45,099 nucleotides of DNA from Chloroflexota bacterium. GTDB taxonomy: Bacteria; Chloroflexota; Chloroflexia; QHBQ01. Below, piece by piece: positions 4-41,697 of the stretch (positions are counted from its first letter, which is position 1; the number at the start of each line of letters is the position of its first letter). The notes beneath the pieces were generated by a model. It did not search any database. It worked only from the letters and a program-made list of their open reading frames with translations, and had not been told where the DNA came from. Both the position numbers and the translations under genes were made by a program. The DNA lies in contig JAYUUN010000128.1 in NCBI GenBank assembly GCA_043754535.1, positions 1 to 45,099 on the forward strand. Reading direction: 5' to 3'.

Positions 4-2025
4 TCAGAGCGGGTTGGTTGTCTTGGCGAGGCGCACGGTGGGGATGGTGAAGATGAAGGTGCTACCCTTGCCCTGCACGCTGTCCACCCACATCCGCCCA
101 CCCTGCGCCTCCACCACCTGCTTACAGAAGGTCAGGCCCAGGCCAGTACCGGCCATGTGTCCCGCCTTGCGATTCTGCACCTGGTAGAACTTGTCAAATA
201 TCTTCTGGCCTGCATCGGAGGGGATGCCAATGCCAGTGTCGCGCACGCGCACCTCAACCATGCCGTCATCCATGCGCCCGCTACTGATCGTCAGGCCGCC
301 AGTCTCGGTGAACTTGAGGGCGTTGCTGATCAGGTTGCTGAAAACGCGCGCCAGCTTGGTGCGGTCGCCATAGACAGTCAGCTTACCACCGCCTGGTACA
401 GCCTTCAGGTAGAGACCGCGCTCCGCTGCCGCCCCCTGCATTTGGCTGACCACTTCGGCAATCATATCGTTGAGATCGAGGGGGCGCAGCGCAAGCTGCA
501 TCTGCCCTGCTTCTAGCTTGTAGACATCCAGCATATCACCGATCAGGTTGTTGAGGCTGTTGCAGCTAGCAATTGCCATCTGCACAAAGTTCTGCTGCAC
601 TGGGTTGACTGCGCCAATCGAGGGGTCAGCGATCATGTCCAGGCAGCCAAAGATGCCAGTGATCGGCCCGCGCAGGTCGTGGCTGATCATGTGAACAAAC
701 TCCTCGCGCAGGGCGGCTGCCTCGCGCAGCTTGGTTATGTCGGCCATTGCCACTACGCAGCCAGTTACGCGCCCACCCGCGTCGCGCAGTGCGTCGCAGC
801 TAACCAGCATTGGCACGCGACTGCCGTTGGCCGGGACAATCACGCTCATCTCCATGCCAACTACCTGTTGGCCGCTGCTCAGTACGGTGTGTAGGACACT
901 CGCAAGGCGGCCTTCCTCCTCTGCCAACAACTGCGCTACCTCCAGGCCGATCACCTGCGTGCGGCTTGCCCCTAGCAGGTGAAGGGCGGCGGGGTTGCAA
1001 TTGGTCAGGCGGGTGGCCTGGTCGGTGGTCAGCAACACCTCAGCCAGATTGCTCAGGATCGCTTCGGTACGCTGCTTCTCCTCTACCACTTCCGTGTGCC
1101 TGTAGGCATTGCGAGCTGCAATCATCACCTGGCTGGCGATAGCGGTCAACAAGTCTAGCTGGCCCGCCTGGAAGTGGCCTTTATCGGGGTGGACAAGAGT
1201 CAGCACGCCACCCACCTCCCCCCCACTCATCATTGGCACCGAGACTGCCGAACCGACCTTGATCGGGTCATCGGGGAAGTGTACCCAGCGGTCATCGGTG
1301 TCGGTGTCGGTGATCACCGCCCCTTGTGCGTGGCGGGCGACCCAGCCGCCCAGTCCACTGTCCAACACCTGGTTGACTACGCTCTTGCGCTCCTCGGCGG
1401 GCAGGTAGGCGCGGGCAAGCAGGAAGCGGACGACGCGGCGTTCCTGGTCGAGCAGGAGGATGCTACCTTTGTTCGCGCTCAGATAGTCTACGGTCATCTC
1501 AATTGTCTTGCTCAAAACGCGATCCACGTCGAGGCTGTCATTGAGTGCGTTGCTAACCTGGTAGAGCAGGTCGATCTTATTACGCTCGGCGGTCAGTGCG
1601 TCCTGGGTTCGTTTGAGGCGCAGCAGGGAGCGCACGCGGGCCAGCAGTTCGGGGTAGTTGACTGGCTTGACCAGGTAATCGTCCACACCCATCTCAAGGC
1701 CACGAATCTTGTCGCGCAGGTCGCTCTTGGCGGTAACGATGATAATCGGGATGAAAGGGAGGTGGGGGTTGTTCTTCACCCGCTCAGTCACTTCGTAGCC
1801 ATTGAGGTTGGGCATCATCAGGTCAAGTACGATCAGGTCTGGCACCTGACGGTCAACCTCGGTCAGAGCTTCTACCCCATCACAGGCGGTGACGACCTGG
1901 TAGCCGCCGCCGCGCAAGACAGTGGCGAACAACTCACGGTTGTCTTCGTTGTCGTCCACGACCAGCACGCGCTGGCGGAGGGCTTCGGGCCGGACTTCGC
2001 TTACCTGTTGCAGAGTGGTAGCCAC
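4..2025 (-). CDS. Hybrid sensor histidine kinase (REC-GAF-PAS-HisKA-HATPase)
   Basis: N-terminal receiver (VLVVDD, DLMMP, KPV), GAF segment, PAS (NPAA), H-box SHDLRGP, N-box NLISNALKF, G boxes DTGIG and GTGLGL; no TM helix seen; GTG start. Confidence 0.93.
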   Translation of the reverse strand: MATTLQQVSEVRPEALRQRVLVVDDNEDNRELFATVLRGGGYQVVTACDGVEALTEVDRQVPDLIVLDLMMPNLNGYEVTERVKNNPHLPFIPIIIVTAKSDLRDKIRGLEMGVDDYLVKPVNYPELLARVRSLLRLKRTQDALTAERNKIDLLYQVSNALNDSLDVDRVLSKTIEMTVDYLSANKGSILLLDQERRVVRFLLARAYLPAEERKSVVNQVLDSGLGGWVARHAQGAVITDTDTDDRWVHFPDDPIKVGSAVSVPMMSGGEVGGVLTLVHPDKGHFQAGQLDLLTAIASQVMIAARNAYRHTEVVEEKQRTEAILSNLAEVLLTTDQATRLTNCNPAALHLLGASRTQVIGLEVAQLLAEEEGRLASVLHTVLSSGQQVVGMEMSVIVPANGSRVPMLVSCDALRDAGGRVTGCVVAMADITKLREAAALREEFVHMISHDLRGPITGIFGCLDMIADPSIGAVNPVQQNFVQMAIASCNSLNNLIGDMLDVYKLEAGQMQLALRPLDLNDMIAEVVSQMQGAAAERGLYLKAVPGGGKLTVYGDRTKLARVFSNLISNALKFTETGGLTISSGRMDDGMVEVRVRDTGIGIPSDAGQKIFDKFYQVQNRKAGHMAGTGLGLTFCKQVVEAQGGRMWVDSVQGKGSTFIFTIPTVRLAKTTNPL

Positions 2026-2030
2026 GGCTG

Positions 2031-2741
2031 CTACTTCACCCCGCTGCTGATCGTCACGCCAAAGCGGTAGCCAACCCCACGCTCGGTAATCACGTAGCGG
2101 GTTGGCTCGACGGTGTCGCCTAGCTTGCGCCGCAGGGTACTCATCCGCACCCAGAGCGACTCCAGCCCGCCCTCGTCCTGGAAGTTCCAGGCTCGCCGCA
2201 GCAATATGTCGTTGGTGACGACCTTCCCTTCGTTCTGGATCAGGCAGAAAAGCAGGCGCGACTCGATGGGCGAGAGGTGGATTTGCTTGCCGCTGACTAC
2301 TGCCGTGTGGCGGGCAAAGTTGATCGACAGGCCATCGTCCACTAGCAGTTCGCCACCACTGTCTAGCAGGGCGTTGTTGATGCGCGAGAGCAGGCGGTTG
2401 ACGCGGGCGCGCAACTCTGGGTAGCGGAACGGCTTGTTGATGTAGTCGTCGGCGTAGTTCTCCAATCCCTGCACGATAGTATGCTCGTCGGCAACAGCAG
2501 TGAGCATGATCACTGGCACCTCGACATACTTTTGTAGGCGGCGGCTTAGTTCGAAGCCACTCATGCCCGGCAGCATCAGGTCAAGGATCGCCAGGTTGGG
2601 GAGGGTAGTCTCCACCTTGTTGAGTGCCTCGTTGCCGCTGCGGGCGGCCACCACCTCAAAGCCGTCGTTGGTCAGATTGACCCGCAGCAGATTAAGGATC
2701 GTTTCGTCATCATCAACAACAAGGATACGCTGCCTACTCAT
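2031..2741 (-). CDS. OmpR/PhoB-family response regulator
   Basis: ILVVDDD, DLMLPG, KPF receiver plus C-terminal winged helix ending TERGVGYRF; AAGGAGG RBS; ends 5 bp upstream of the kinase. Confidence 0.95.
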   Translation of the reverse strand: MSRQRILVVDDDETILNLLRVNLTNDGFEVVAARSGNEALNKVETTLPNLAILDLMLPGMSGFELSRRLQKYVEVPVIMLTAVADEHTIVQGLENYADDYINKPFRYPELRARVNRLLSRINNALLDSGGELLVDDGLSINFARHTAVVSGKQIHLSPIESRLLFCLIQNEGKVVTNDILLRRAWNFQDEGGLESLWVRMSTLRRKLGDTVEPTRYVITERGVGYRFGVTISSGVK

Positions 2742-3838: not shown

Positions 3839-3924
3839 GGAGGCAGTCGGCCTGGCAGAGGGCTGGGCAGGGCTCGTGTCTCCCTTGTGGCAGGGGTTTG
3901 GCTCGCAGCCACAAACCTTCACAG

Positions 3925-3960
3925 CAAAAGGGTGCGCCAGCCACAACTAGCGCACCCTTG
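3925..3960 (-). terminator. Intrinsic terminator of the opsin gene
   Basis: Stem AAGGGTGCGC (3928-3937) / GCGCACCCTT (3950-3959) with a T-run on the minus strand, just downstream of the opsin stop. Confidence 0.7.
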
Positions 3961-3972
3961 AGCTTGCGAAAA

Positions 3973-4677
3973 CTAGCCAGTTACCTTGTTGCCAGCTGGA
4001 GCCGGATCAGGGATGCGGTTGAGCGCACTGAGCAGGATGAAACCGAAGCCCACCTTTGCGATCACGTCCATAATTGCGAAGGCAGCTACTTCGATATCCT
4101 GGCCGAACAGCTTCAGACCCTCGGTGCCAAGCAGCCAGGCTACGGGGTAGAAAAGCCAAAGGACAACCAGGATGCTGCTCAACGAGTTGAAGGTAGCCAA
4201 CGACTCGGCACTCTGGCTGGCTGCCTCGGCACGTACCTGCCCAAAGAGCAAGAAGTAGATGGCTAGCAGCGCAACGCAGCTTACGATGTAGAACGTCCAG
4301 CGCATGGTGTCGTTGTTCGAGAGGGTGGCGATCAGGCCAGTCAGGATCATGAACACGTCTGCACCAATCAGGCCGCCAATGAGGGTGCCGCGATTGCGCG
4401 AAGCAAACGGCATTGCCAGCAGGGCCAGATCCAGCAAGAGCAACGGGGTGGTCAACACCCAGTCGAGGTAGCGGGCGTAGTAGACCTCGCGGGTACCAAC
4501 GATGGTGATACCGCTGCCGAGGGCCATCGCCAGGTAAGAAGCGGCTGCGATTAGCGGGACGAAGAAGGTGATCACATAGTGGTCACGGTGGTTCTTTGCG
4601 CTCAGGCTCATCGCCAGGAACGCAGCTGCGCCAAGAGCCATCCCTGCTACGCCGACCCACAGAAAAGTAGACTGCAT
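3973..4677 (-). CDS. Microbial rhodopsin, bacteriorhodopsin-like DTD proton-pump type (234 aa)
   Basis: Seven hydrophobic helices; helix C RYLDWVLTTPLLLLD, helix F WLFYPVAW, GTEG loop, helix G DVIAKVGFG with retinal Lys; start ATG 4677 after TAAGGAG. Confidence 0.96.
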   Translation of the reverse strand: MQSTFLWVGVAGMALGAAAFLAMSLSAKNHRDHYVITFFVPLIAAASYLAMALGSGITIVGTREVYYARYLDWVLTTPLLLLDLALLAMPFASRNRGTLIGGLIGADVFMILTGLIATLSNNDTMRWTFYIVSCVALLAIYFLLFGQVRAEAASQSAESLATFNSLSSILVVLWLFYPVAWLLGTEGLKLFGQDIEVAAFAIMDVIAKVGFGFILLSALNRIPDPAPAGNKVTG

Positions 4678-4822
4678 ACAATTCTCCTTAGAATGAGATG
4701 CCAATTGTCAGACTAGCAACGTTGCTTGACGACCCAGCATAGTTACCGAGCGGTCACGTCTTGGCAGGCGAGATCAGGGGGGTTAGCCTATTTGTGGTGG
4801 GTCGGAGCTTTGTTCTGACCAG

Positions 4823-4851
4823 ATTATAGCTTCTTGCACAGCCTTTGTCAA
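4823..4851 (-). promoter_or_regulatory. Consensus sigma70 promoter of the opsin gene
   Basis: Minus strand TTGACA (4851-4846), 17 bp, TATAAT (4828-4823); implies a leader of about 140 nt. Confidence 0.85.
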
Positions 4852-19811: not shown

Positions 19812-22800
19812 TCACTTCTTGACTGCAACCATCGGTAGCTTACCCAGGTCGTCGGCGGTCAGGCTGTTTTCGGCGGCGGTGCTGGGCTTGTAGTCCTTGA
19901 GCGAGTCCTCCTGGCCCGGCTTCTGATCGGCTGGCAGGGCCGCGTCAATAATACGCGTGTGGTTGGTGTCGGCTGGCGCACCACCCAGCTTCCACTCTGC
20001 TGCCGTCGCCTGCACGTCGCGCACACGGCCACTCGCGGTTGCTGGCCCGTCCTGGCTCATTACCACCGCAAGGTAGCTCCAGCTGGCAGGGTCGCCCGCG
20101 CCAAAGGCCGACTGCGGCACGCGGATGGTGACTACCTGTTGGGCGGCATCCACCTGCACCTTCAGCCTGGCATCAGTCTTGGTCGGGTCGCCAGTTGCGC
20201 TGCCCTTGTAGACTGCCTGGCCGTCGGGCCAACCCTCGGCCTTGACCGCCACATCCCAGCTATCTACTGCGCTGACGGCGGCATTGCGGCCAACCAGCAG
20301 CTTACGTGCGCCACTACCGTCCTTGTGGTCAGTGTCTACATAGATGTCGAAGCTCTGCAAGGCAAGGCCACTTGGCGAACCCCAGGGGTTGTCGGTCGGG
20401 CCATTCATCTTGAAGCGGAAGACCATATTGCTATCGCCGTCGGTGCCAACCTGGAACTGGGCGATGTCGAAGTTGCCAGGCTTGAAGGCGGCATTCTGAG
20501 GGTAGGTGTAGCTGCCCGGCCCATGGTCGTCGCCCTTCGGGTCGTCAACAGTAAGGAAGAAGTTGATTGGGTTGCGGTCTGGTACGTTGAGGCTGAAGGA
20601 GCCGTTTGGGACTGCTGCTGGCGCAGAGCCTTGCTTGACCACGTAGCCTTGCAGCGTCAGCTTGTCGCCAGTGTTCAGCTTGCCGAGGGCAGCCCAGGGG
20701 ACGCTTAGTTCCAGCGTCTTGCCAGCGGCGGCGGCTTTGGCCCCCTGCTGCTCGATCTGCGCGTACTGGTTGCCGTCAGCGGCCTTGCGGATGCTGGGTG
20801 GGCCAGCCACACCGCCACTGAAGGGGATCACCACATCATAACCAGCGGAGAAGCCGACAGGTTGGGTGCTGCCATCCTGGAAGCCAACAGCGGTCTCCTG
20901 ACCTGGCGTGCCGAAGTAGAAACTAACGAGGCCGTCGCCGAACGCGCTCCAATCGGTAGCCTGATCAAGGCGCAGGTTGATGTTGGCTGCATCGTAGCCA
21001 TAGTAGAGGCTCGGCCCTTCACCGCTAGCCATTGCGCCACCACCCAGCTTGTACTGGCCTGCCTTGTCCCACTCGCCTGCCGCAGCGGTGCCATCTACGG
21101 TCACTGCCGCTTCGCTGCTAACTGGCCGGGTGGGGGCTGCTGCCCGCTTGCTGATGATCGGCACGTTGAGGAAGGCTGGGGGTGTGGCTCCAACGTTGAT
21201 GTAGACCTGGGCTAGGGTCTTGCGGTACTGCTCATCAAAGGCCGCATCGTCGCCGCTGTCCTGGTCGTCGCCAAACCACCAGAACCAGTCGCTACCCTCG
21301 GCAGCCAGCATCGCTTCCTTCGCCGCTTGTAGTTTGCCAGGGTCGGCAGCCTGCTTTGTTCCCTTCATGTATGGATCGAAGAAATCGCGGGTCTGGCGCA
21401 GGTAGTCCCAGCCCTGGTTCTCCTCTGGTTCGCCGATCCAGGTACTGAAGGTGCCGTCGATCCAGCTACCAGGGTAGAGCTTGGGGATCAGGTCGGCGGT
21501 GGGGAACTGGGCGAGGTACTCGGAGGGCGTGACCAGTTTGACCGCTGGATCGCTGGTTAGCTTGCGATACATGGAGTTGAGGAACTCCTTGCCGTCATTA
21601 TCGTAGTTCTCCCAGGCGTTCTCGCCATCCAACAGGACGGTAAGCAGGTGAGGCTTGCTAGCGGCGTTCTTGTTGCTGGCGATCTGCGCACCCGCCGCTT
21701 TGATGCGGGCTACCATGTCGTCACTAGCCTTCTCGCCCGGCATCGCGCTATAGTTGAAGCCCACCTCGTCGCTGAGGGCGTGGTCGCGGAATAGGATGTA
21801 GACGGGCTTGCCGTCCTTGCCATCCTGCACCTTGTAAGGCTTGTACAGGCTATCCGCCAGCTTAACCGTGCCGCTGCTATTGCGCTCGAAGCCGGTGCTG
21901 ATAGCGTAGCTACGGGCCAACACCATCTCATCGCTAGCGATCCAGTTGATACCATTGTTGGCAAAGTGCTTGACGATCTCCTGAGCCACCGAACCCTCGG
22001 CGGGCCACATCCCCTTCGGCTCTGCGCCAAACTTCTCCTGGTACAGTTGCTTGGCAAGCTGCACCTGCATCTCCGCATCCTCTGGGTAGCTGAAAGGCGC
22101 GCTCGGCTGGGTCGCGCCGGTGCCTTGCAGGCCGAGGCGGGCGAGATTGGTGTTCTCCAACAGAGGGAGGATTGGATGCGAGTAGGGGGTGGTGATGATC
22201 TCGATCCCCTTCTTGATCGCCTCGGCGTGTGCGGGGATGATCCGCTTCATGATCGCCAGGTGTTGGGCTAGCACTGTCGCCTTATCTGCGTCGCTGTAAC
22301 CCTTACCCTTCGTCACCAGAGCCTTAAGTGGCTCCTGGGCCAGATAGTCGGGATCCATCCATCCCAGATTGAACAGCACTTGCAGGTCGCGCCAGTCGGC
22401 CTCCTGCCAGTCGGCGAAGCGAATCTGGAGAGCAGCATCGCTGGTGTCGGCCCCGCGTTTGGCTTTCAGTTCCACGTAGCGGGGAAAGCGGTTGATGATC
22501 TTGGCGTTCGCATCGAAGAAGTGCTTGAGCAGGAAGGTCTTATCTGCATCACTCAGGTCAGCCACAGCCTTCTCGGTGACGACCATGTAGCTGTCTTTCG
22601 CACCGTTGGCGAAGTCGTCGATCTGGCGGATCAGCGAGGGGGTGAGATTGATGGTGACGTGGGCGTTGTACTTCTCCGCCGTTTCTACCATGTCCAGGTA
22701 GTCCTTGACCCCGTGCATCCGCACCCAGGGCCGCTCGTACACGCCAGTGGCAGGGTCTTTGAAGTAGAAGGGCTGATGCTGGTGCCAAATGATCGACACG

Positions 22801-23042
22801 TAGAGCGGTTGACTAGGTACAGCGGCGGTGGTGCTAGTCGGCGCAGCAGCGGCGGTGGTGCTAGTCGGCGCAGCGGCAGCCAGAGCGGTATTGGTCGCGG
22901 CAGGGGGGGTGAACTTGCTCTCAAACAGGATTGCGGTAGGGGTGGCATTGCTGCTGCCGCCTATGTCGCAGGCGGCCAGCACAAAAGTAGCAACAACCAG
23001 CAGGCTGAACAGCCGCAGCAGCCGGGGGTGGATGGTAGACAC
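19812..23042 (-). CDS. Lipoprotein GH57 amylopullulanase with C-terminal glucodextranase-C/DOMON-like domain
   Basis: Lipobox LAAC, Thr/Ala linker, WHQHQP, HPILP, nucleophile WPAEG, acid/base LDGENAW, AEGSDWFWW; C-terminal DPKGDDHGPGSYTYP. Confidence 0.92.
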   Translation of the reverse strand: MSTIHPRLLRLFSLLVVATFVLAACDIGGSSNATPTAILFESKFTPPAATNTALAAAAPTSTTAAAAPTSTTAAVPSQPLYVSIIWHQHQPFYFKDPATGVYERPWVRMHGVKDYLDMVETAEKYNAHVTINLTPSLIRQIDDFANGAKDSYMVVTEKAVADLSDADKTFLLKHFFDANAKIINRFPRYVELKAKRGADTSDAALQIRFADWQEADWRDLQVLFNLGWMDPDYLAQEPLKALVTKGKGYSDADKATVLAQHLAIMKRIIPAHAEAIKKGIEIITTPYSHPILPLLENTNLARLGLQGTGATQPSAPFSYPEDAEMQVQLAKQLYQEKFGAEPKGMWPAEGSVAQEIVKHFANNGINWIASDEMVLARSYAISTGFERNSSGTVKLADSLYKPYKVQDGKDGKPVYILFRDHALSDEVGFNYSAMPGEKASDDMVARIKAAGAQIASNKNAASKPHLLTVLLDGENAWENYDNDGKEFLNSMYRKLTSDPAVKLVTPSEYLAQFPTADLIPKLYPGSWIDGTFSTWIGEPEENQGWDYLRQTRDFFDPYMKGTKQAADPGKLQAAKEAMLAAEGSDWFWWFGDDQDSGDDAAFDEQYRKTLAQVYINVGATPPAFLNVPIISKRAAAPTRPVSSEAAVTVDGTAAAGEWDKAGQYKLGGGAMASGEGPSLYYGYDAANINLRLDQATDWSAFGDGLVSFYFGTPGQETAVGFQDGSTQPVGFSAGYDVVIPFSGGVAGPPSIRKAADGNQYAQIEQQGAKAAAAGKTLELSVPWAALGKLNTGDKLTLQGYVVKQGSAPAAVPNGSFSLNVPDRNPINFFLTVDDPKGDDHGPGSYTYPQNAAFKPGNFDIAQFQVGTDGDSNMVFRFKMNGPTDNPWGSPSGLALQSFDIYVDTDHKDGSGARKLLVGRNAAVSAVDSWDVAVKAEGWPDGQAVYKGSATGDPTKTDARLKVQVDAAQQVVTIRVPQSAFGAGDPASWSYLAVVMSQDGPATASGRVRDVQATAAEWKLGGAPADTNHTRIIDAALPADQKPGQEDSLKDYKPSTAAENSLTADDLGKLPMVAVKK
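22820..22873. repeat. Perfect 27-bp tandem duplication in the GH57 linker
   Basis: CAGCGGCGGTGGTGCTAGTCGGCGCAG x2, encoding the AAAAPTSTT repeat. Confidence 0.9.
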
Positions 23043-23166
23043 GGGGCAGGCTCCTTCTTTCGCGCTCTATACTGCTAACCAATAGTTGGATTGAGCAGAT
23101 GATAGCACAAAGGAAGCGCGGAGGCAAGGGTGGTTGGGGGTTGACCCAGGTCTAGAAAAGCAGTTT

Positions 23167-23940
23167 TTAGCTGGTTGGCTCAAGCTCGGTTGGCGTGGCT
23201 GGGGCAGGCGGCTCAGGCGCACTGGCGATGGCAGTTAGCCGCTTGCGGACAGCGAGCTTGGCCTTCTGCTCAAGCAGCTTGTCGCTACCCAAGATTTGGC
23301 GATCTAGCTCGCGACCCTCCGTACTGCTATCGCGTTCGTAGCCGGGGGCGATGTAGAGCAAGTCGCGGTAGCTCTCGTCAGGGGCGACCTCGATGCTGCG
23401 GCCCTCCTCGTTGCGTAGCGTCCACACGTTGTCGAAGCCGAAGATGAACTCCTGCTCCTCCTTGCGTGTCACCCGCGTCTCCTGCCAGCCGAGGTCATGC
23501 AGCCCCTCCAACAGCAGGCGGCTGACCAGCACCAGACCCTTAACGGCAGTCTCTTGGATGATCGGCCACTGTAGATCAGCGTGGTAGCGGTTAAACAACT
23601 CGCCCTGACCGCTAACCCGCTCCTCCACGCGCCGTCGCCCACCTGCCGCCACGCTGCTGAAGCCACGTGATCCTTTGCCGTGCGACACACGCTTGCTACC
23701 TGATCTCGCGCCCGGCCCACCACCCTGCCCACGCTCATCCCTACGCTCGGTCAGCGAAGGTCCCTTGCGGGGAGCCTGACCAGGGTGCGGACGCTTACGC
23801 TTGGGCCGCTCATCAACGCCAGCCTCGCGGGGCGGGCGTGGGGTTGCGGGGGCGGGCGGTCCCGCCTGCGCTTGCTCGGCCCCGGCTGCACGGGAGGGGC
23901 GTGGGGGTCGCGGAGGTCTATTCTGGTTCTGCTCCGACAT
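23167..23940 (-). CDS. Hypothetical protein (Arg/Pro/Gly-rich disordered N-half, ~140-aa globular C-domain)
   Basis: ATG 23940 after AAGAGG; fills the gap between same-strand genes; no family recognised. Confidence 0.7.
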   Translation of the reverse strand: MSEQNQNRPPRPPRPSRAAGAEQAQAGPPAPATPRPPREAGVDERPKRKRPHPGQAPRKGPSLTERRDERGQGGGPGARSGSKRVSHGKGSRGFSSVAAGGRRRVEERVSGQGELFNRYHADLQWPIIQETAVKGLVLVSRLLLEGLHDLGWQETRVTRKEEQEFIFGFDNVWTLRNEEGRSIEVAPDESYRDLLYIAPGYERDSSTEGRELDRQILGSDKLLEQKAKLAVRKRLTAIASAPEPPAPATPTELEPTS

Positions 23941-24012
23941 TGGTACTACCTCTTTTCGGCTATGGTGGACACTTGCCATCAATCTGCGTGCCAATAGCAG
24001 CGGGGGGACGAA

Positions 24013-24038
24013 GCGGCCTCCCCTGACGAGGAGGCCGC
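24013..24038 (-). terminator. GC-rich hairpin downstream of the SLH protein gene
   Basis: GCGGCCTCC / GGAGGCCGC stem, weak U-tract. Confidence 0.45.
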
Positions 24039-24085
24039 CTGCGGGCTAGTCGCCTCTGGCGGGGCCAGAGAGCGAAGGCTGAGGG

Positions 24086-27000
24086 CTAGGGTATCAGGTC
24101 TATAGAGCGTTTGACTACCTTGCTCAGTTCACCGCGCTTGATGTTATCGTTCGGGCGGAAGCAGAACGGCCCACTGGTGCCAGCGCAGTAGTTGCCGCTG
24201 ATGATGCCGCCATGTGCTAGCGTCTCGATAGCGTTGAAGAACAGGTTGTTAGCGGCTACGTCGCTGAAGGTTGGGCTAGTCGGTGAGTAGACGGCGTAAC
24301 GACGCACCCGCTGCACGATAGCCGCCACCTGGCCGCGCGTGATGTTCACGTTGGGGCCGTAGCAGGGCGATGTTGTGCCGAGGCCCGTACACTGGGCCGC
24401 AGTAAGGCCGTTGACCGCACCGACGCGGGCGACCGCCTCGATGTAACCGTAGAATACGCTACCAACCGCCACATCGCGGAAGGTCGGAGTGGCTGGCACG
24501 TAGCTGGGGATGCCGAAGCCCAGCTTGGTTATCTTGGCGAACTGGCCGCGAGTAGTATTGCTGTTAGGCTCAAAGCGGATGGTGGTGGGTGGGGTGTTGG
24601 GGAAGCCGCCCACAATACCGTTGCAGTAAAGGAACTCGATGTAGCTAACAAAGATGTTGGTAGCTGGCACATCGCTGAAGCTCGGTGTAGTGCGGGTAGC
24701 TACGCAGACTGTGCCAGAGCCGATGTCGTTGACTGGATTCTCGTCGCCCGGTGCGTCGATCACTACCCAAACCCGCTGCTTGCCACCCTCGGTGAAGGTG
24801 TGGGTGGTGCCGATAGCCAGCGTCTGGCCGCCAGGGAGGTTGCTAGTCTGTGCCGCAAAGCAGTCGTTGGGGTTGCTACAGGCCGTAACCTGGGTGGGGG
24901 TCGTCACCTGGTTGAAGTAGAGGCGCACGCTGGCCGAACCCTCGAACTGGATCGCCCCAAAGTTCTTGATCGTAGCGGTGACGATACTTGGCTGGTTCAA
25001 CTGCGGCAGGTTGCTGAAGTTGGGGACTGTCGCTCTTGCTTCCACCTTGTAGAGGCCGAGATCAACGATGGGTGGCGCACTGGGGGTGGGGGTGTTGTCG
25101 CCAGGGGCGATCACCTCTACTCGCAGGGGGATTACCTTGCCGCCGAGGCGCAGGTCAACCAGCGGGTCGTTATTCGCGCTGTAGAGGAAGCCAGTCAGCA
25201 CTGTGCGCGCATTGAGGTTGCGGGCATCAAGGGTGAACTGCACGCGAGTCGGGGTGGTGATATTCGTCGTGCCAGAGATCGGCGACTCGCTGATCCAGGG
25301 CAGGTCGGTATAGTTAATCGGTGGGGCTTCCACATACTTGAGCATATTGGCGTACCACTTGGCCGCTTGGGGGTCAGGCGGAATGTTGTTGATCCCCTGC
25401 CGATTGAGGACAAGGCGGTTGCTCGCCAGCACTGCCTTCTGGTCGAGGGTAGCAACCAGGCTGGCCTCACCCTCAGTGGCGTTACGGCTGTAGCCCGCCA
25501 GCGGTTGGGCGATCACCTCGTCTACCACCATCGGGCTGCCATAGCCGGTGTTGTAGCCCAGCAGGCTCTGGTTGGTTACGTCGGTGAGGACAAAGGGGCG
25601 GCTGAACAACTGGTTGTTTGGCTCCCAGATGTACTGCGAACGCGGGTTGACCTCGCGGGGGTTGCGCCCCTGAATGCCAAAGGTGTTGTTGAAGAACTGC
25701 GCAGTTTCGGTGTAGACCGGGTTGCCTGGCCCCGGCTGGAGGCCAGTTACGTCAAAGGTACTCATCACCAGCTTGCCACCTTCGCGCCCATTGAAGACAC
25801 CACTACCGTTTAGGTAGTCCCTGAGTATCTGCCAGTGAGGGGCGTAGGTGCCATTGGGTTGGCCGCTGAGGGGGTAGTCCTGGAAGCGCAGGTTCTGGTC
25901 ATGCTCAACCAGCACCACATCCCAGGTGTTGGTCGGGTTGTTCAGCGCGTTCCAGAAGCCAGCGGGTTCGTTGAAGTAGCCACTGATCTGGAAGGGCGGT
26001 TCGCCCGCGATGCGCGACAGGTAGCAGAGGCCACGTGCGCTGGGGTTGTAGTAGATTGCGGGAACTGGCGGCGGGTTCGCGTTGTTGTAGTAATAGAGGT
26101 CAGGAGGCTGGTTGTGGTCGCTGTAGAGCAGCACCCGCAGCGGCGCGGTCAATACATTGTGGGGGTTGAGCGTCCAGTCTACTGCGCTGGCCTCCAATGT
26201 TCCCGGCTGGCCGTCGGTGCGCGGCACCTGCCTACTGTAGCGCAGGGTGGGGTAGCCGTTGGTCAGGCAGGTCGCCGGGTCAATCGGGATCACGTCGTCA
26301 CCGGTGCGGGCCGGTAGTGCCAGCGGATTGGGCGGCGGGTTGGTCGCTTCACGCAGGAACCAACGCAGGTTGCCAGTGCCACCGTTGGCGATATTCATCG
26401 CAAAGTCGGTGCTGGTCATGCCGTATGTGACCCACATATTGTTGTAGGCAGCCTGCTGGTACACGCCGCGTGCGCTCTTGAGCAGGATGTCGGCCCCCTG
26501 GGTCGTCTGGCCTGCTACCACGCTAACCGTCGTCGTGTCGCTGATGTAGCGCGAGGCGTTGCCCTCAAGGGTGTAGGTGCCAGGCGGTAGGGTGAGAGTG
26601 TACACCCCATTGTAGCTAGTCAATGGTGGGGTGTAGTCCACGCGGGTACTGAAGGTGCGGCTGGTACCTCGCGCCCTGACCACCCCTGTTAGCGGGCTGG
26701 AAGGGGCGAAGAAGCGACGCAGCACACCCGTCACCGTCCCCTGAGGAGGGACACTGTAGTGGATCGAGAGACCAGTGAACAACACGCCTTCGCGGAAGCT
26801 GTACTGGAAGCCGTCAACTGTGTTGTTGGCGGCTGGCCCTTCGAGGCCGACCGAGGCCTTCTGGCCTATCGAGTAGTCATCCTCTGGGTCGGGAGTCTGG
26901 TTGCCAGTAGTCTGGTAGTTCATGTAGATGTCGTAGCTATAGGGCTGGGCTGCGCCTTTGCGCCAGAGTACCAGTTCGCAATCCAGGGTGGCAGTGGTGG

Positions 27001-27886
27001 TGGCCGGGTCCAGGTAGTGGCCTGCCCAACGGATCACAAAGCGCGAACCGTTACTGTCCTGGATGAAGTTGGTAAAGACCCCCGCCGCCCCAATGGGGTT
27101 GGGTAGTAGGATTTGGCTGAACCAGGTGCTGATCGTATTACGCGGGTTGGCGGGGCTAGGGATCGGTGAACCAGGACCGATCAGACCAGCGAGGCTACCG
27201 GGCTGGAAGCCAACGATACCAGCACTCTGCACTTCCAGGCTACTGTAGGAGGTTCCATAGTAGTTGAAGGCGAAGGGTAGACTGATCGTCGCTACCGCAC
27301 CATTGCTAGCGATGGCCTCGATCCGATTGGTGGCAGGAATGTAACTGCTGCTCTCCTGCGTACAGACGTAGCCGAACTGATCGGTCTTACGCACGATCCG
27401 CAGGTCGGGTACGCTGTAGTTGCTGTTGGACACGGTGATCGCAATGTCATCCGCCTTCTCGCAGTGGTCAGGGACGGTCACATGGAGGGTGTACTGACCA
27501 GGGAAGATTTCGCTGAAGCTGTACAGGCCGTTGACGTTGGTGGTAGCGGTCAGGTTGCCGAAGGTGACAGTGATGCCGACGACCGGGGTGATCACCGAGC
27601 CAGAAGCGTCGGTGCGGACTACCCGTCCCGACACCGTGTAACTGATGCCACCACTGGGCCGAATCACGCTGATTTTAGCCGCACTGGGGTTGGTCACTGC
27701 CGGTTGGACTTCGATCTCTTGCTGGTAAGCCTTGAAGATGCGGGCGGTGTGGGGTTTGCCGCCCTTCAGGGTGGAGTCGCTAGCCGTCCAGGTGACGAAG
27801 GTGCCGAAGAACATGGAGAGAACCAGCACCGCTGTTAGCCAGCGATAAACACGGTAGTTTGCACGCTCGTTTGTACTATTGACCAT
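24086..27886 (-). CDS. Large multidomain surface protein with three C-terminal SLH repeats
   Basis: N-terminal hydrophobic signal; two carboxypeptidase-regulatory-like beta domains (PGQYTL, PPGTYTL); LPFAFNYYG domain; CARDB-like (DL...ATIKNFG...DENPVND); FSDV/FRDV/FSDV SLH repeats with TRGQ, TRGQ, KRGE. Confidence 0.85.
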   Translation of the reverse strand: MVNSTNERANYRVYRWLTAVLVLSMFFGTFVTWTASDSTLKGGKPHTARIFKAYQQEIEVQPAVTNPSAAKISVIRPSGGISYTVSGRVVRTDASGSVITPVVGITVTFGNLTATTNVNGLYSFSEIFPGQYTLHVTVPDHCEKADDIAITVSNSNYSVPDLRIVRKTDQFGYVCTQESSSYIPATNRIEAIASNGAVATISLPFAFNYYGTSYSSLEVQSAGIVGFQPGSLAGLIGPGSPIPSPANPRNTISTWFSQILLPNPIGAAGVFTNFIQDSNGSRFVIRWAGHYLDPATTTATLDCELVLWRKGAAQPYSYDIYMNYQTTGNQTPDPEDDYSIGQKASVGLEGPAANNTVDGFQYSFREGVLFTGLSIHYSVPPQGTVTGVLRRFFAPSSPLTGVVRARGTSRTFSTRVDYTPPLTSYNGVYTLTLPPGTYTLEGNASRYISDTTTVSVVAGQTTQGADILLKSARGVYQQAAYNNMWVTYGMTSTDFAMNIANGGTGNLRWFLREATNPPPNPLALPARTGDDVIPIDPATCLTNGYPTLRYSRQVPRTDGQPGTLEASAVDWTLNPHNVLTAPLRVLLYSDHNQPPDLYYYNNANPPPVPAIYYNPSARGLCYLSRIAGEPPFQISGYFNEPAGFWNALNNPTNTWDVVLVEHDQNLRFQDYPLSGQPNGTYAPHWQILRDYLNGSGVFNGREGGKLVMSTFDVTGLQPGPGNPVYTETAQFFNNTFGIQGRNPREVNPRSQYIWEPNNQLFSRPFVLTDVTNQSLLGYNTGYGSPMVVDEVIAQPLAGYSRNATEGEASLVATLDQKAVLASNRLVLNRQGINNIPPDPQAAKWYANMLKYVEAPPINYTDLPWISESPISGTTNITTPTRVQFTLDARNLNARTVLTGFLYSANNDPLVDLRLGGKVIPLRVEVIAPGDNTPTPSAPPIVDLGLYKVEARATVPNFSNLPQLNQPSIVTATIKNFGAIQFEGSASVRLYFNQVTTPTQVTACSNPNDCFAAQTSNLPGGQTLAIGTTHTFTEGGKQRVWVVIDAPGDENPVNDIGSGTVCVATRTTPSFSDVPATNIFVSYIEFLYCNGIVGGFPNTPPTTIRFEPNSNTTRGQFAKITKLGFGIPSYVPATPTFRDVAVGSVFYGYIEAVARVGAVNGLTAAQCTGLGTTSPCYGPNVNITRGQVAAIVQRVRRYAVYSPTSPTFSDVAANNLFFNAIETLAHGGIISGNYCAGTSGPFCFRPNDNIKRGELSKVVKRSIDLIP

Positions 27887-28125
27887 CACTTCATCCTCTC
27901 TAAAGGAAACAAGGCCGCTGCCAACCACCCTCGAAGCGGGCTTGTAGCCGCAGCCAGTTTAACTCATGCACCTCAACACCCATCAGCAGGCGGTAGCGGC
28001 GGAAGGTGGAGGGCCTATATAGCCCAGGCAAGTTGCCAGGCAGGCCCGCCAAAAAGAGGAGATGGGGGCAGGCATACCAGGCTGACTGCTCCCGCCCCCT
28101 CTCTTTGCTTGTGTTGCTCGGCAGC

Positions 28126-30195
28126 TTACTGGCCGGGCAGTACCAGGTGAACAGGATTGCCGCGCAGGGTGATCAACCAGGTGGTGCGGTCGGTAGCCTG
28201 GGTGTCCACCACGTAGCGCACCTGCCAGTAGCCGCCAGTGTAGGTTGGTTCTAGTCGATAGACCATGTCGATCCAGCGGTTCTGGCCGTTCTGATTAGTA
28301 CCTACCTTCGCCAGGTAGCGGTCGGTGTTGTTAATCACTACAGGCGACTCACCGGCGCGGTTACGGTCGCTCTGCACACCCTGCACGATATTGAGGCCAG
28401 TCTGCACGTAGTTGGTAGGGTGGGTAGCGTCTGGTGGGTGGAGCAACTGGATCGTGCAGTTGCCATTACCAACATCACCAGGGTCGAACAGGCGCACATC
28501 CATCACCTTGCGGGCGGCATCAGCTGGGACGTTAGCCATGTAGAGATCGGACTGGCCTCGCGGCAGGGTAATATAGACAGGCAGCCGTTGCAGGGCGAAG
28601 ACGCGCACACCAGCCGCCCCAGCCCCATCGAGCAGTAGGCTGAAGTTGTTTTGGCCGGGGATGTCCACCCGCCGACCGCCATTGGTGTAGGCAGCGGTGC
28701 GGTCAGTATTGAGGTTGAGTCGCCACTGGGCAAAGCCATTGTTGGTCAGGTTACCGCCAGCTGGGCCACCAGGGTGGATGGGGCTACCCACACTGCCTGT
28801 GGTATTATAGTCCACCCACTTGAGGTGGTAGAGGTTGCTGACGGGGTCGAAGATACGGTTGTAGTCGTTCCAGTTAGTACCGGAGATGGTCGAAGTGTAA
28901 GGTACAGCTGGCACAGTCCACTGTGAACCAGCCAGCACTGCATCGTCACCGTAGTAATAGGGCGTGCTGTCCGGCGGGTAGAGCTTGTAGTAAGTGTTCA
29001 GTTGCTGCGCGCCCGATCTAGAGGTGTAATCACCGTTGACGTTAGCGTTAGTGCTTGCGGTGGTACCACGGCAGTTGGCTACATTCTTGGCAACCAGAGT
29101 TGCAGGTGTGGCTGTAACTTGAATTGACATGGAGCCAAGAGGATCAATCTGGTTCAGACCACTAGAGGCAGCGATGTTGTCACCAGTGAAGAACGAGTTG
29201 CTCGCGCACCAGGTGCTCTTCACCGGATCGCTAGGAGGATTAGCTCCTGTGGGGCTGGCGTTGTCGTAAGCATTAGGATTGTTGACATTGTAGGTGGGCG
29301 GGTTGGCAGCAAAAGCAGCATCGAAGACCCGCAACTGGGCCGCGCTGCCAGGGGGCATATAAATGCCGAAGTTGTAGCCGGTGTTGGGTTGATTGTTGTC
29401 GTAGTCCTCCTGGAACTGGCTGCTCTGGTCGTTGCAGAGGCCACCATTGTTGTTGCAGTTGTACTTGACTACGAAGGGGTCGCCATAGGCTTTGTCAGTT
29501 CCAGCCCAGTGTAGGCTAAGCCAGAAGTTCTGAGTGCGGATCGTACTTCTGTAATTGCCCTCGATCCGCTCTGGGTCGCCACCAGTGAAGGTAGGGTTAG
29601 AAGTATCGCCAATGTAACCAGGCAAGGGCGGGACAATCATACCAGGCGGTACCTGCCCCTTGCCGGTACCGAGGAATGCCTCTGGCGCACCCATCTGGAT
29701 GGGGCTGCTATACTCGGCGATAGCCTCGCGGGCCACCTTTATCTTCTTGAAACCGATCAGACCCATGAAAGTAGTGGTGTAGGGAGCAGTAACTCGCACC
29801 TTCAACTGCACATCAATCGAGACCTTGATCGGGATCACGCACACCTTGTCGAGCGGCTGGTTGGTGGCACTACAGCCGCTGGCGTTGGTGAAGCCGTTGC
29901 GCTGCGAGGTGTCCAGCGATAGTTCGGTGGCGTTGCCGCCAAAGTTGGTGCCAGCAAAGAAGTTGTCAGGCATGAAGACCACGCCCGCGAGGGAGGCGGC
30001 ATCGGCAGCCCGCTGCATCTTTGCCCCTTGCAGGCGCATCATGCCCACGTCGTAGACCAACCCGGCAATGGTGAGCAGCACGCCGAGGGCGAGGGCCAGG
30101 ATTACGATTGCCTGCCCCTTCTCGCGGCGTACCAACAGGTTGCGGGTTAGCCAACCCGCCTCAACCCTGCTCAGATTCATCCTTCGCTTATCCAT
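28126..30195 (-). CDS. TadG-like pilus protein with large C-terminal putative adhesin domain
   Basis: EKG|QAIVIL prepilin-like site, TM helix, D.G...MQRAADAASLAG Tad motif; ~520-aa Asn/Thr/Gly-rich extracellular region. Confidence 0.85.
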   Translation of the reverse strand: MDKRRMNLSRVEAGWLTRNLLVRREKGQAIVILALALGVLLTIAGLVYDVGMMRLQGAKMQRAADAASLAGVVFMPDNFFAGTNFGGNATELSLDTSQRNGFTNASGCSATNQPLDKVCVIPIKVSIDVQLKVRVTAPYTTTFMGLIGFKKIKVAREAIAEYSSPIQMGAPEAFLGTGKGQVPPGMIVPPLPGYIGDTSNPTFTGGDPERIEGNYRSTIRTQNFWLSLHWAGTDKAYGDPFVVKYNCNNNGGLCNDQSSQFQEDYDNNQPNTGYNFGIYMPPGSAAQLRVFDAAFAANPPTYNVNNPNAYDNASPTGANPPSDPVKSTWCASNSFFTGDNIAASSGLNQIDPLGSMSIQVTATPATLVAKNVANCRGTTASTNANVNGDYTSRSGAQQLNTYYKLYPPDSTPYYYGDDAVLAGSQWTVPAVPYTSTISGTNWNDYNRIFDPVSNLYHLKWVDYNTTGSVGSPIHPGGPAGGNLTNNGFAQWRLNLNTDRTAAYTNGGRRVDIPGQNNFSLLLDGAGAAGVRVFALQRLPVYITLPRGQSDLYMANVPADAARKVMDVRLFDPGDVGNGNCTIQLLHPPDATHPTNYVQTGLNIVQGVQSDRNRAGESPVVINNTDRYLAKVGTNQNGQNRWIDMVYRLEPTYTGGYWQVRYVVDTQATDRTTWLITLRGNPVHLVLPGQ

Positions 30196-30222
30196 CTCGC
30201 ATACTCCTTAGCTGCTTGTAGC

Positions 30223-30822
30223 TTACTGGCCGCAGAAATCACCGGGGTTGCCCTTGTAGCAGAGCGGTTCGATTGGCATCAGGGTGGTGGCTGTCAGATC
30301 AATACTACTAGACAGCGCGTGCATAAAGGGGTTGACCCAGTCATGGCGATAGCTGATCGTGATAGCCGCGATGTCGGTAGGGTCAATCGTCTTGCGGGTG
30401 GCTGGATCCCAGCCGCCAGGGGTGCTGTCTGGTAGCCAGGTATAAACCCCAAAGGCGTTCGGCCCCCAGTGATAGCGATTAAATACCGGGTCGGCGCAGT
30501 TAGGGTTGCTGAGGGCGACCCCAGCACAGCTACTCTTGCTGGCATCATAAATCTTGATTGCCCGCACGTTGTTGTAGTTGAGACCGAGCAGGCCGCTGGT
30601 GGTGATTGCGCGAAGGGCCGCGTCGTCGCTGCTAGGCTGGGTACCAGCGGCGGAGATGCTGCGGGCGGCATCCAAGACAGCGATCTGAATACCGAGGCGA
30701 TCCTTGAAGTAGAACGCGATTTCGATCAGGCCGAGGATGATCACTAGAAAGAGTGGGAAGACGAGGGCGAACTCGACCATTGCCTGGCCCCGGCTGCGCT
30801 TACGCCGCTTGTTCATCAACAT
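30223..30822 (-). CDS. TadE/TadF-like minor pilin
   Basis: RG|QAMVEFALVFP, TM helix, DAAR; AGGAGG RBS. Confidence 0.9.
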   Translation of the reverse strand: MLMNKRRKRSRGQAMVEFALVFPLFLVIILGLIEIAFYFKDRLGIQIAVLDAARSISAAGTQPSSDDAALRAITTSGLLGLNYNNVRAIKIYDASKSSCAGVALSNPNCADPVFNRYHWGPNAFGVYTWLPDSTPGGWDPATRKTIDPTDIAAITISYRHDWVNPFMHALSSSIDLTATTLMPIEPLCYKGNPGDFCGQ

Positions 30823-30835
30823 CGTAAAACCTCCT

Positions 30836-31483: not shown

Positions 31484-31600
31484 CTTACTTTTCCTCCAAA
31501 CAACCGCGAGGATGCGACTTGTAGCACAATGATAGCGGGGGGTACACCTACCCGCCTTCATCATAACACGCTTATCAGTAGCCCGTAAATAGGAAATTGG

Positions 31601-40200: not shown

Positions 40201-41697
40201 ATGGCACAGAAAGTTGTGGTCGTTGGCGCGGGCTTCGCTGGACTGGCGACCGCGATCCGCTTGCAGGTAGCAGGCTACGAGGTGACGGTGGTGGAGAAGC
40301 GCACGAAGGTGGGTGGGCGCGCCTACCGCCTGGAAGACAGCGGCTATACCTTCGACATGGGGCCGAGCCTCGTTACCCTACCCTCGTTGTTCCGCGAACT
40401 GTTCGCCCTTGCTGGGCGTAATTTCGACGACTATGTGAAGCTGATCCCCCTCGATCCTTACTACCGTATCTACTTCCCCGACGACGGCTACACTCAGTAT
40501 ATTGACTACTCTGGCAACACCGAGCGGATGAAGCGGGAACTGGCAAAGTTCGACCCCCGCGATGCGGAACGCTACGAGCCGTTCCTCAAGTCCATTGACC
40601 CGATCTTCAAGACGGGCTACCTCAAGTTTGGCAGCCAGCCCTTCATGCGGCTGTGGGATCAGATGAAGCTGGTGCCGCAGATGCTCAAGATGAACGCGAT
40701 CCTGCCCGTCTACCAGTTCATGAAGGGCAAGTTCCACCACGAGTACAACCGACGGGCGATGGGCTTCCAGTCGCTGTTCCTGGGTGGCAATCCCGCTAGC
40801 GTACCAGCGATCTACGCAATGCTACCGGCTATCGAGCGGCATGAGGGGGTCTGGTATGCCCAGGATGGGGGAATGTACGGGGTAATCCTCGCCTTTGCCA
40901 AGCTCTACGCCGAACTAGGCGGCAAGCTGATCACCAACTGTGCGGTCAAGGAGATAATGATCGAGAACCGCCGCGCCACGGGCGTGCGCCTGGCCGACGA
41001 TAGCATCCTGCCCGCCGATATTGTGGTTAGCAATGCAGACACCTCGTGGACTTACAAGTACTTGATCAAGACCGAACACCGCCGCTTCTGGACTGACCGC
41101 AAGGTGGAAAGCATGAAGCGGGGGATGTCGCTGTTCCTCCTCTACATCGGCACCGACCGCCAGTACCCCAAGCTGTTCCACCACACCCTGATCCTCAGCG
41201 AGCAATATCGCGAGACCTTGCAGGCTATCTTCAAGGGCAAGAAGCTGTCGGAACAATACTCGATCTATGCCCACGCCCCTACCCGCAGCGACCCTAGCAT
41301 GGCTCCTGAAGGGGGCGACAGCATCTATATGCTGATCCCAGTGCCGACCCTGGATGCGGGCATCGCCTGGGAGACCTATGGCGCGGTGATGGAGGAGAGC
41401 GTAATCCATTTCCTTGAACACGACTTTGGCCTCGAAGACCTGAGCAAGCACATCAAGGTGTTGCATCGCATGACCCCGCTCGACTTCCAAGATGACCTAT
41501 TGGCTTACCAGGGTAGCACCTTCAGCTTTGAGCCGACCCTCTTGCAGTCGGCCTACTTCCGCGCCCACAATCGCTCGGAGGACTTCGCCAACCTCTACAT
41601 CGTGGGAGGCGGCACCCACCCCGGCGCGGGCGTGCCAGGCGTACTGCTGACCGCCAAGATCGCTGCTGACCTGATCACTGGGGAGATCAAGGGGTAG
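40201..41697 (+). CDS. crtI: Phytoene desaturase / CrtI-family carotenoid desaturase
   Basis: VVVGAGFAGL FAD motif, GGRA, FDMGPS, VVSNAD, SAYFRAHN, GTHPGAGVPGVL. Confidence 0.9.
   Translation: MAQKVVVVGAGFAGLATAIRLQVAGYEVTVVEKRTKVGGRAYRLEDSGYTFDMGPSLVTLPSLFRELFALAGRNFDDYVKLIPLDPYYRIYFPDDGYTQYIDYSGNTERMKRELAKFDPRDAERYEPFLKSIDPIFKTGYLKFGSQPFMRLWDQMKLVPQMLKMNAILPVYQFMKGKFHHEYNRRAMGFQSLFLGGNPASVPAIYAMLPAIERHEGVWYAQDGGMYGVILAFAKLYAELGGKLITNCAVKEIMIENRRATGVRLADDSILPADIVVSNADTSWTYKYLIKTEHRRFWTDRKVESMKRGMSLFLLYIGTDRQYPKLFHHTLILSEQYRETLQAIFKGKKLSEQYSIYAHAPTRSDPSMAPEGGDSIYMLIPVPTLDAGIAWETYGAVMEESVIHFLEHDFGLEDLSKHIKVLHRMTPLDFQDDLLAYQGSTFSFEPTLLQSAYFRAHNRSEDFANLYIVGGGTHPGAGVPGVLLTAKIAADLITGEIKG

Follow-up and report, generated by a model that had tools for sequence, protein, structure and literature searches.

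A bacteriorhodopsin-like rhodopsin of an isolated Chloroflexia lineage, a probable light-driven outward proton pump

A rhodopsin gene with the bacteriorhodopsin residue set

The DNA analyzed here, referred to below as the window, is contig JAYUUN010000128.1 (45,099 nucleotides; assembly GCA_043754535.1) from a metagenome-assembled genome (MAG) of a Chloroflexota bacterium. It includes a microbial rhodopsin gene whose product carries the complete set of proton-path residues of haloarchaeal bacteriorhodopsin (BR), and which is isolated among known rhodopsins. The gene is located as follows:

3973..4677, minus strand: rhodopsin coding sequence (CDS), 234 amino acids plus stop (ATG at 4677, stop at 3973-3975), family PF01036

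The predicted protein matches the Pfam family PF01036 (Bac_rhodopsin) along residues 2-219 with an E-value of 1.3e-57 and 195.3 bits, the cut-off being 24.6. When used as a query against the PDB, it retrieves 139 distinct sequences at E <= 1e-5, with archaerhodopsin-2 (AR2) on top (E 4e-50). Its membership of the rhodopsin family is far beyond chance. A previous sequence-only reading of this DNA had listed 16 residues as the complete haloarchaeal BR set. Upon counting along the translation, all 16 (T37, Y48, R69, D72, T76, D83, D107, W174, Y177, P178, W181, E186, E196, D204, A207, and K208) were found at the positions proposed.

The equivalences with BR were checked by HMMER alignments to AR2 and to Haloquadratum BR (HwBR), by three MAFFT alignments and by residue spacing. 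BR residue numbers are used for them and for the pocket positions discussed below. In the N-terminal half, T46, Y57, R82, D85, T89, D96, and D115 of BR correspond to T37, Y48, R69, D72, T76, D83, and D107; in the C-terminal half, W182/Y185/P186/W189 correspond to W174/Y177/P178/W181, and E194, E204, D212, A215, and K216 to E186, E196, D204, A207, and K208. The spacing of W189-E194-E204-D212-K216 in BR is the same as that of W181-E186-E196-D204-K208, residues R82/D85/T89/D96 lie at 69/72/76/83, and the distance from D115 to W182 is of 67 residues in both proteins. E186 and E196 align in HMMER with glutamates of AR2 and HwBR and keep the BR spacing, and the DTD triad (D72/T76/D83) is present in the alignments together with R69 and D204. 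Counting, alignments and spacing hence agree on the complete set.

Predicted structure and retinal pocket

An AlphaFold2 model computed from a 28-row alignment has a mean predicted local distance difference score (pLDDT) of 92.7 and a predicted template modeling score (pTM) of 0.88. Seven helices and a B-C beta-hairpin can be seen in it, K208 being part of the last helix (H193-219). Superposition on solved rhodopsins yielded template modeling (TM) scores of 0.85-0.91 and root-mean-square deviations (rmsd) of 1.4-2.3 A; within this set, identity to AR2/AR3, BR, the Rubrobacter protein RxR, cyanorhodopsin (CyR), and SsGHR ranges from 36 to 44%. Pocket residues W73, T77, L80, M110, G114, S133, W174, Y177, P178, and W181 are conserved.

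The nearest solved structures include the anion pumps SsGHR and MrHR as well as the inward pump BcXeR, with similar TM-scores, as might be expected if the protein moved protons inward or pumped anions. The residues argue otherwise, since D85 or D96 is missing in such proteins. SsGHR has a TTG motif (PMC11532467), cyanobacterial anion-pump-like rows of our alignments have T at the D85 position, and rows resembling ASR or xenorhodopsins (XeR) have P at D212, whereas the window rhodopsin has D72, D83, and D204. We consider a transport activity of either of these kinds exceedingly improbable.

Transcription unit and neighboring genes

The following signals flank the gene:

4684..4689, minus strand: Shine-Dalgarno sequence AAGGAG, 6 nt before ATG 4677, kept in the sister species
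4690..4816, minus strand: predicted 5′ leader of about 140 nt, its transcription start being deduced from the -10 box
4823..4851, minus strand: sigma-70-type promoter, TTGACA-17 nt-TATAAT, 12 of 12 consensus matches
3920..3960, minus strand: terminator-like hairpin of 14 bp, then UUUUGCUG, between the rhodopsin stop and a converging AlkA-like gene

ATG 4677 is the likely start codon rather than TTG 4704, as it is preceded by AAGGAG at the distance given and homologues start at the same point. The stretch just upstream shows 3-nt and 1-nt gaps and 74% identity when compared with the sister species, and is therefore read as non-coding. A promoter scan of the region returned two promoter-like sites versus 0.5 expected, and the promoter listed above is identical in the sister species at 29 of 29 bases. 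The first 109 nt of the leader are 98.2% identical between both species (107/109), compared with 73.7% for DNA further upstream, 74.3% for the leader next to the ribosome-binding site and 95.6% for the rhodopsin CDS. Neither a stable fold (z 0.11) nor, in an Rfam scan, a known family was found in the leader. The conserved block of promoter and leader (window 4708-4851, minus strand) may correspond to an operator or to some other regulatory element.

The hairpin that follows the rhodopsin stop has a folding energy of -36.4 kcal/mol (z -6.75; none of 200 shuffles folds as well), and its stem is conserved in the sister species. A consensus terminator scan missed it because its T-run has only four T. 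The two in-gene sites which that scan proposed were disregarded, and folding was used in its place.

Upstream of the rhodopsin gene, after a gap of 292 nt, lies an o-succinylbenzoate-synthase (OSBS)-like gene of the MR/MLE type; downstream, the converging gene encodes an AlkA-like glycosylase. Two regulatory genes are located beyond the latter gene and the hairpin:

2031-2741, minus strand: OmpR-type response regulator
4-2025, minus strand: GAF-PAS hybrid histidine kinase

Both lie on the same strand as the rhodopsin gene, 1.2 kb downstream, and their arrangement is kept in the sister species, which would suit a light sensor signaling to them. However, the AlkA-like gene and the strong hairpin separate them from the rhodopsin gene, and no transducer family (Htr/MCP or ASRT) was detected among the 33 window open reading frames (ORFs) scanned. 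Moreover, D83 together with T37 and the E186/E196 pair are characteristic of pumps; in ASR-like rows, the donor is replaced by A or S and D212 by P. A sensory role is very unlikely. The proposal that the gene is monocistronic, with promoter and terminator of its own and no adjacent transducer, holds at the level of sequence signals, on account of the promoter match, the hairpin and the ORF scan.

Elsewhere in the window, segments 28126-31564 and 19812-27928 (both minus strand) include Tad/Flp pilus-assembly genes (TadE/TadG-like), a GH57 enzyme that bears an SLH-like glucodextranase C-terminal module, and an SLH-domain protein of 1280 amino acids.

Isolation among known proteins

Among about 5.8 billion clustered proteins, the rhodopsin belongs to one 90%-identity cluster of four members. 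The next match after that cluster, P0015, is 56% identical over 94% of the query. The best-scoring matches (P0003-P0005) are 48-51% identical and correspond to DTG/DTS-type neighbors (motifs are named here by the residues at the D72/T76/D83 positions). A HMMER pass over 1.84 billion 50%-representatives gave none above 53% identity, the top-scoring representative being P0005, a DTG protein. Mean identity to every recognizable group is 34-47%, with values of 43% for the RxR clade, 45% for the actinobacterial DTG group and 47% for other bacterial DTD proteins. With nothing among these proteins falling between 56 and 97% identity, the rhodopsin is an orphan.

A table of relatives was compiled with 136 sequences of at least 200 amino acids (the query, its 120 best matches and 15 further cluster members; eight shorter fragments were left out). 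DTG proteins with both glutamates (DTG-EE) and S at the T46 position account for 75 of them and DTD proteins with both glutamates (DTD-EE) for 54, while seven show other combinations. As judged from the named loci, the DTG-EE proteins come mainly from Thermoleophilia, Solirubrobacterales, Gaiellales and lake 'Mycobacterium' MAGs, and the DTD-EE proteins from haloarchaea, Rubrobacteria, Ktedonobacteria, Miltoncostaeaceae and others. The full 11-position signature was found in 7 of 56 non-archaeal loci, which belong to Rubrobacteria, Ktedonobacteria, Thermoleophilia and the Chloroflexia lineage studied here. Among bacterial sequences the residue set is thus neither rare nor peculiar to this gene.

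Clades were labeled by PDB matches. P0148 corresponds to 6kfq, RxR (E 1.1e-79); Phormidesmis locus L035, from the host genome of B1401R, to the cyanorhodopsins 6lm0 and 6lm1; and P0005 matches 8xx8, the TTG anion pump SsGHR (PMC11532467). Rows P0158 and L078 fit the residue pattern of PspR.

Two observations on the relatives deserve mention in their own right. The DTG-EE proteins with S at T46 (S46-DTG-EE; L005-L032, L052, L053, L073; P0003-P0031) form a large and apparently uncharacterized group whose C-D loop spans 15-20 residues. Its members come from Thermoleophilia, Solirubrobacterales, Gaiellales, lake 'Mycobacterium' MAGs and one Limnocylindrales MAG, and it is distinct from PspR-type DTG pumps, in which T46 is replaced by H and E204 is missing. 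In addition, a 6-kb contig from a lake sample labeled as a Bifidobacterium breve MAG (L069) encodes a DTD-EE rhodopsin that groups with a Miltoncostaeaceae protein (100*, FastTree); the organism label looks doubtful.

In the literature accessible to us, partly as incomplete texts, no characterized Chloroflexia DTD rhodopsin was found. The available part of a survey of Antarctic soils describes uncharacterized rhodopsin clades of Actinobacteriota and Chloroflexota, less than 50% identical to bacteriorhodopsins and pantorhodopsins (bioRxiv 10.1101/2020.08.06.239558). Going by that part, the existence of such lineages had therefore already been noticed. The present lineage may itself be listed among the 'BR-like' clades of that survey or of a glacier survey (PMC7701988).

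Phylogenetic position

A phylogeny, which the sequence-only reading had put forward as a check, was obtained with two programs. FastTree was run on 153 rows, four of the original 157 having been dropped as they have no Schiff-base lysine. IQ-TREE was run under LG+C20+F+G4 with posterior mean site frequencies (PMSF), in a quick and a careful version, on 85 rows chosen from the 153 to cover every clade (252 columns). The rhodopsin and its closest relative, a twin from another Chloroflexia MAG, pair with a support of 100/100 on a stem of 0.63. In all three trees this pair falls inside a 44-row clade (ultrafast bootstrap, UFBoot, 90; Shimodaira-Hasegawa-like likelihood-ratio support, SH-aLRT, 95). 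The same clade holds a pair of proteins with a DTH motif and a 40-row clade (98/94) without a carboxylic donor, in which DTG, DTS, DTA and DTN proteins, TTG anion pumps and ASR-like proteins are found. The window rhodopsin lies outside the 40-row clade, and its sister relation to it is weak (84/24). It is nested in no characterized clade.

The two DTH proteins (L077:6001-6675, from an uncultured Thermomicrobiales MAG, and P0161) have His at BR D96 and Thr at E194. They group at 100/100, and their long stem arises at the base of the donor-less superclade, by which we refer to DTG/DTS pumps, TTG anion pumps, ASR/xenorhodopsin-like proteins and the actinobacterial S46-DTG-EE group. No relevant paper on DTH-motif rhodopsins was found in the literature.

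Alternative placements were compared with the approximately unbiased (AU) test, the groups being chosen after the tree was seen:

Rhodopsin with haloarchaeal BR: delta log-likelihood (lnL) 30.6, p-AU 0.0075, rejected
Rhodopsin with Ktedonobacteria: delta lnL 23.4, p-AU 0.034, marginally rejected
Rhodopsin with the RxR clade (five rows): delta lnL 18.5, p-AU 0.198, not rejected

The last of these results is what would be obtained if the protein were a divergent member or a sister of the characterized RxR (Rubrobacter) DTD clade instead of a separate basal lineage. The protein also shares with RxR the residue set, at nearly the same numbering (according to the accessible text of PMC5349596), and a C-D loop of 13-14 residues compared with 9 in haloarchaeal BR, and its identity to RxR or to the representative of the RxR cluster is 44-47%. 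Nevertheless, the three free maximum-likelihood (ML) trees put it alongside the DTH pair and the proteins lacking the donor at the support given above, and its mean identity to the RxR clade is no higher than that to DTG or other bacterial DTD proteins. We regard an affiliation to the RxR clade as unlikely, albeit worth keeping in mind. The helix-E residues Y130 and C134 were considered as derived characters tying the protein to the DTG/DTS group and were set aside; they are not decisive because they are also found in CyR and sporadically elsewhere.

Regarding the proposed novelty of the clade, the trees and the gap between 56 and 97% identity agree in that the rhodopsin belongs to no characterized clade; a position as sister to the RxR clade stays compatible with the data. 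The likely placement of the rhodopsin beside the DTG/DTS group, whose members have no donor, is of interest for understanding the loss of the cytoplasmic donor.

Host, distribution and habitat

The host is a Chloroflexia MAG of 3.87 Mb in 132 contigs (G000), 88.9% complete, with one rhodopsin gene. The sole close relative of this gene is the twin mentioned above, 97% identical and located in a Chloroflexia bacterium MAG rated as the same genus (L004). The same eight genes, 89-99% identical at the amino-acid level, flank both copies, and this syntenic twin bears out the Chloroflexota host that had been suggested from the DNA alone.

To map the distribution, 61 genomes were searched, the window's own included. 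The gene is present in two of two genomes of the genus, with identical synteny. It was not found in any of the three other genomes of the family (83-84% complete) nor in any of 35 further genomes of the order, and the remainder of the class gave only two matches, both of 27% identity. The GC content at third codon positions (GC3) of the gene is 0.73, similar to that of its neighbors. The simplest reading is that the ancestor of the genus acquired the gene once, horizontally and not recently; horizontal acquisition is likely because the gene was found in its own genus only and in none of the 38 other genomes of the order that were searched. It agrees with the independent acquisition of rhodopsins by different Chloroflexi lineages described in the accessible part of PMC5826079. 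The insertion point was sought in a sister genus that lacks the rhodopsin (G002), and no clean empty site was found there: G002 retains just the OSBS-like gene and its neighbor, and synteny breaks exactly on the rhodopsin side.

The CDSs of the two species differ at 31 nucleotides and seven amino acids, none of them at key residues, so the rhodopsin is under purifying selection. No reaction-centre L/M gene (Photo_RC, PF00124) was found in the host MAG, at the completeness stated.

Near-identical DNA, with 2-7 differences in 3.4 kb, was found in metagenome runs from glaciers (four studies), freshwater (one study), an unspecified metagenome (one) and sediment (one, flagged as the possible source). 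The genus occurs in glacier, ice, freshwater and sediment metagenomes.

Proposed function and chromophore supply

Taking into account the results above, we consider it probable that the protein is a retinal-binding, light-driven outward proton pump working like bacteriorhodopsin. Roles can be proposed for D72, E186/E196, and D83 because the same residue set works in this manner in RxR. According to the accessible text of PMC6959264, in RxR the Schiff-base proton passes to D74, release from E187/E197 is simultaneous, the Schiff base is reprotonated from D85 and uptake occurs in the O-decay; the available parts of PMC5349596 and PMC6959264 add that release precedes uptake and that this order is inverted in E mutants. 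In the window rhodopsin, light would isomerize the retinal on K208, and the Schiff-base proton would move to D72, held by T76, R69, and D204. An early proton would leave from an E186/E196 water cluster, and D83, tuned by T37, would reprotonate the Schiff base and be refilled from the cytoplasm. That a pigment forms, which way it pumps, how fast it releases protons and where its retinal comes from are all predicted from sequence. With its gene transcribed alone from a strong promoter of constitutive type, the pump would give a host genus without reaction-centre genes a supplementary proton-motive force.

For the supply of the chromophore, one gene lies within the window:

40201..41697, plus strand: CrtI-family phytoene desaturase (PF01593; TIGR02734, 536 bits versus a cut-off of 238)

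It is located 35 kb from the rhodopsin gene and possibly provides an upstream step; the phytoene synthase gene crtB is on another contig of the MAG (C84). The MAG also encodes one copy of an RPE65-family carotenoid oxygenase (C22:16950-18332; L003:1444-2889). This type of oxygenase was found in both rhodopsin-bearing genomes and in none of the five rhodopsin-less relatives searched, a co-occurrence that amounts to about one event because the genomes are kin. Its closest solved relative is 6vcf, the Nitrosotalea enzyme NdCCD (E 1.7e-160), which shows regiospecificity for apocarotenoids.

Several observations weigh against a pigmented, working pump in this host. In the pocket, three positions differ from BR, with W138 replaced by Y130, T142 by C134, and M145 by L137. 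Searches for Blh/Brp (PF15461) found none in G000 (88.9% complete) or in the genome G001 (87%), against two matches in a Halorubrum control, and G000 yielded no convincing lycopene cyclase. NdCCD is reported to be inactive on beta-carotene, as far as the available text of a review goes (PMC9227343). Finally, RNA data consist of two short assembled contigs from one ice metatranscriptome library, one of 237 nt, at least 99% identical and within the rhodopsin gene (4397-4631), and one of 242 nt at the AlkA 3′ end. They may derive from carried-over DNA and give neither strand nor level, and are a weak hint of transcription of the rhodopsin gene. Uncovered parts of the locus in that run (X11) are uninformative because the run was kept as assembled contigs only.

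The pocket differences also bear on accessory pigments. Antenna binding of the xanthorhodopsin type needs Gly at the BR W138 position. Here this position is occupied by the bulky Tyr, and therefore no carotenoid antenna is expected. As to the cyclase, two candidates were discarded: the PF05834 matches correspond to a geranylgeranyl-reductase-family gene and to generic FAD motifs, and the PF18916 match to a low-complexity frame of 68-93 amino acids.

It could be that the gene is intact but the host has no retinal pathway of its own, the protein being unpigmented or fed by retinal from neighbors. The missing Blh and lycopene cyclase and the likeness of the sole carotenoid oxygenase to NdCCD are in line with this. 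Several findings count on the other side: the genomes are 87-89% complete; CrtB and CrtI are present; the oxygenase is distributed as described above; and both the rhodopsin CDS and its promoter are under constraint. Furthermore, Dictyobacter aurantiacus and a 'Mycobacterium' MAG, which have related rhodopsins, likewise showed such oxygenases and no Blh; in a Rubrobacter MAG neither Blh nor such an oxygenase was found. We judge a host without its own retinal to be rather improbable. Of the retinal phototrophy suggested by the sequence-only reading, the intact opsin gene stands, but no complete chromophore route was found in the genomes searched. The host thus poses a concrete question of Blh-independent retinal supply.

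Combining these data with the phylogeny, it is conceivable, though we put it forward tentatively, that the rhodopsin is the only known surviving DTD lineage at the base of the donor-less superclade, having kept the ancestral donor and release group, and that an NdCCD-like, Blh-independent retinal route was co-acquired with it. If true, the basal position would provide an experimental anchor for the origin of donor-less, inward and sensory forms. The known mechanism is unchanged, and no new kind of system is revealed. A BR-type full proton path has been proven in few bacterial lineages (RxR, cyanorhodopsins), to which this protein would add an isolated one. Coming from a cold habitat, it is also a candidate BR-type pump for use in biophysics or optogenetics.

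Comparison with known rhodopsins

The closest functional model is RxR from Rubrobacter xylanophilus (PDB 6kfq), an outward H+ pump with residues R71/D74/T78/D85/E187/E197/D205/K209 (accessible text of PMC5349596 and PMC6959264). Its R, DTD, glutamate pair, D and K are those of the window rhodopsin with hardly a shift in numbering, and its C-D loop is likewise lengthened. It is 44% identical to the window rhodopsin, with a TM-score of 0.89 to the model of the latter. It differs in that free ML trees do not group both proteins, their identity being 44-47%, and in its helix-E pocket: the window rhodopsin has Y130/C134, whereas rows of the RxR clade mostly have W or F, and T. The RxR host is a thermophilic actinobacterium, whereas the host studied here is a cold-habitat Chloroflexia.

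Haloarchaeal BR and archaerhodopsins (1vgo, 6guz, 1c3w family) are the best matches among solved structures. Their proton-path residues are identical, with 41-44% identity overall and an rmsd of 1.6-1.9 A to the model. In contrast to haloarchaeal BR, the C-D loop of the window rhodopsin is five residues longer and its B-C loop four shorter. Its host is without detected Blh/Brp, which is present in the Halorubrum control, and monophyly with BR was rejected.

DTG/DTS donor-less pumps (PspR, 7W74; SpaR), together with the S46-DTG-EE group, are nearest in the ML tree and give the best database scores. A long C-D loop and the 'SC' residues of helix E are common to them and the window rhodopsin. However, their donor site is G or S and their T46 position S or H, whereas the window rhodopsin has D83, T37, and both glutamates. 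In PspR the corresponding residues are H37, G84, E188, and T198, the latter replacing E204 (PMC8927995).

Rhodopsins of Ktedonobacteria (Dictyobacter/Ktedonobacter) belong to the same phylum and likewise carry DTD and the glutamate pair, with a C-D loop of 13 residues. They are 41-45% identical to the window rhodopsin, and the marginal rejection of their monophyly with it fits independent acquisitions by Chloroflexi, as described in the accessible part of PMC5826079. No characterization of these BR-like rhodopsins was found in the literature.

Cyanorhodopsins (N2098R, 6lm0; B1401R) are bacterial DTD or DTE pumps with the glutamate pair, and those with DTD and the pair pump outward (available text of PMC7541481). 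They are 36-41% identical to the window rhodopsin, carry S in place of T46 and a C-D loop that is short, and form a separate ML-tree clade with cyanobacterial anion pumps. As the sequence-only reading had noted, RxR and the cyanorhodopsins are the characterized bacterial proteins that combine DTD with the glutamate pair, according to the accessible parts of PMC5349596, PMC6959264, and PMC7541481.

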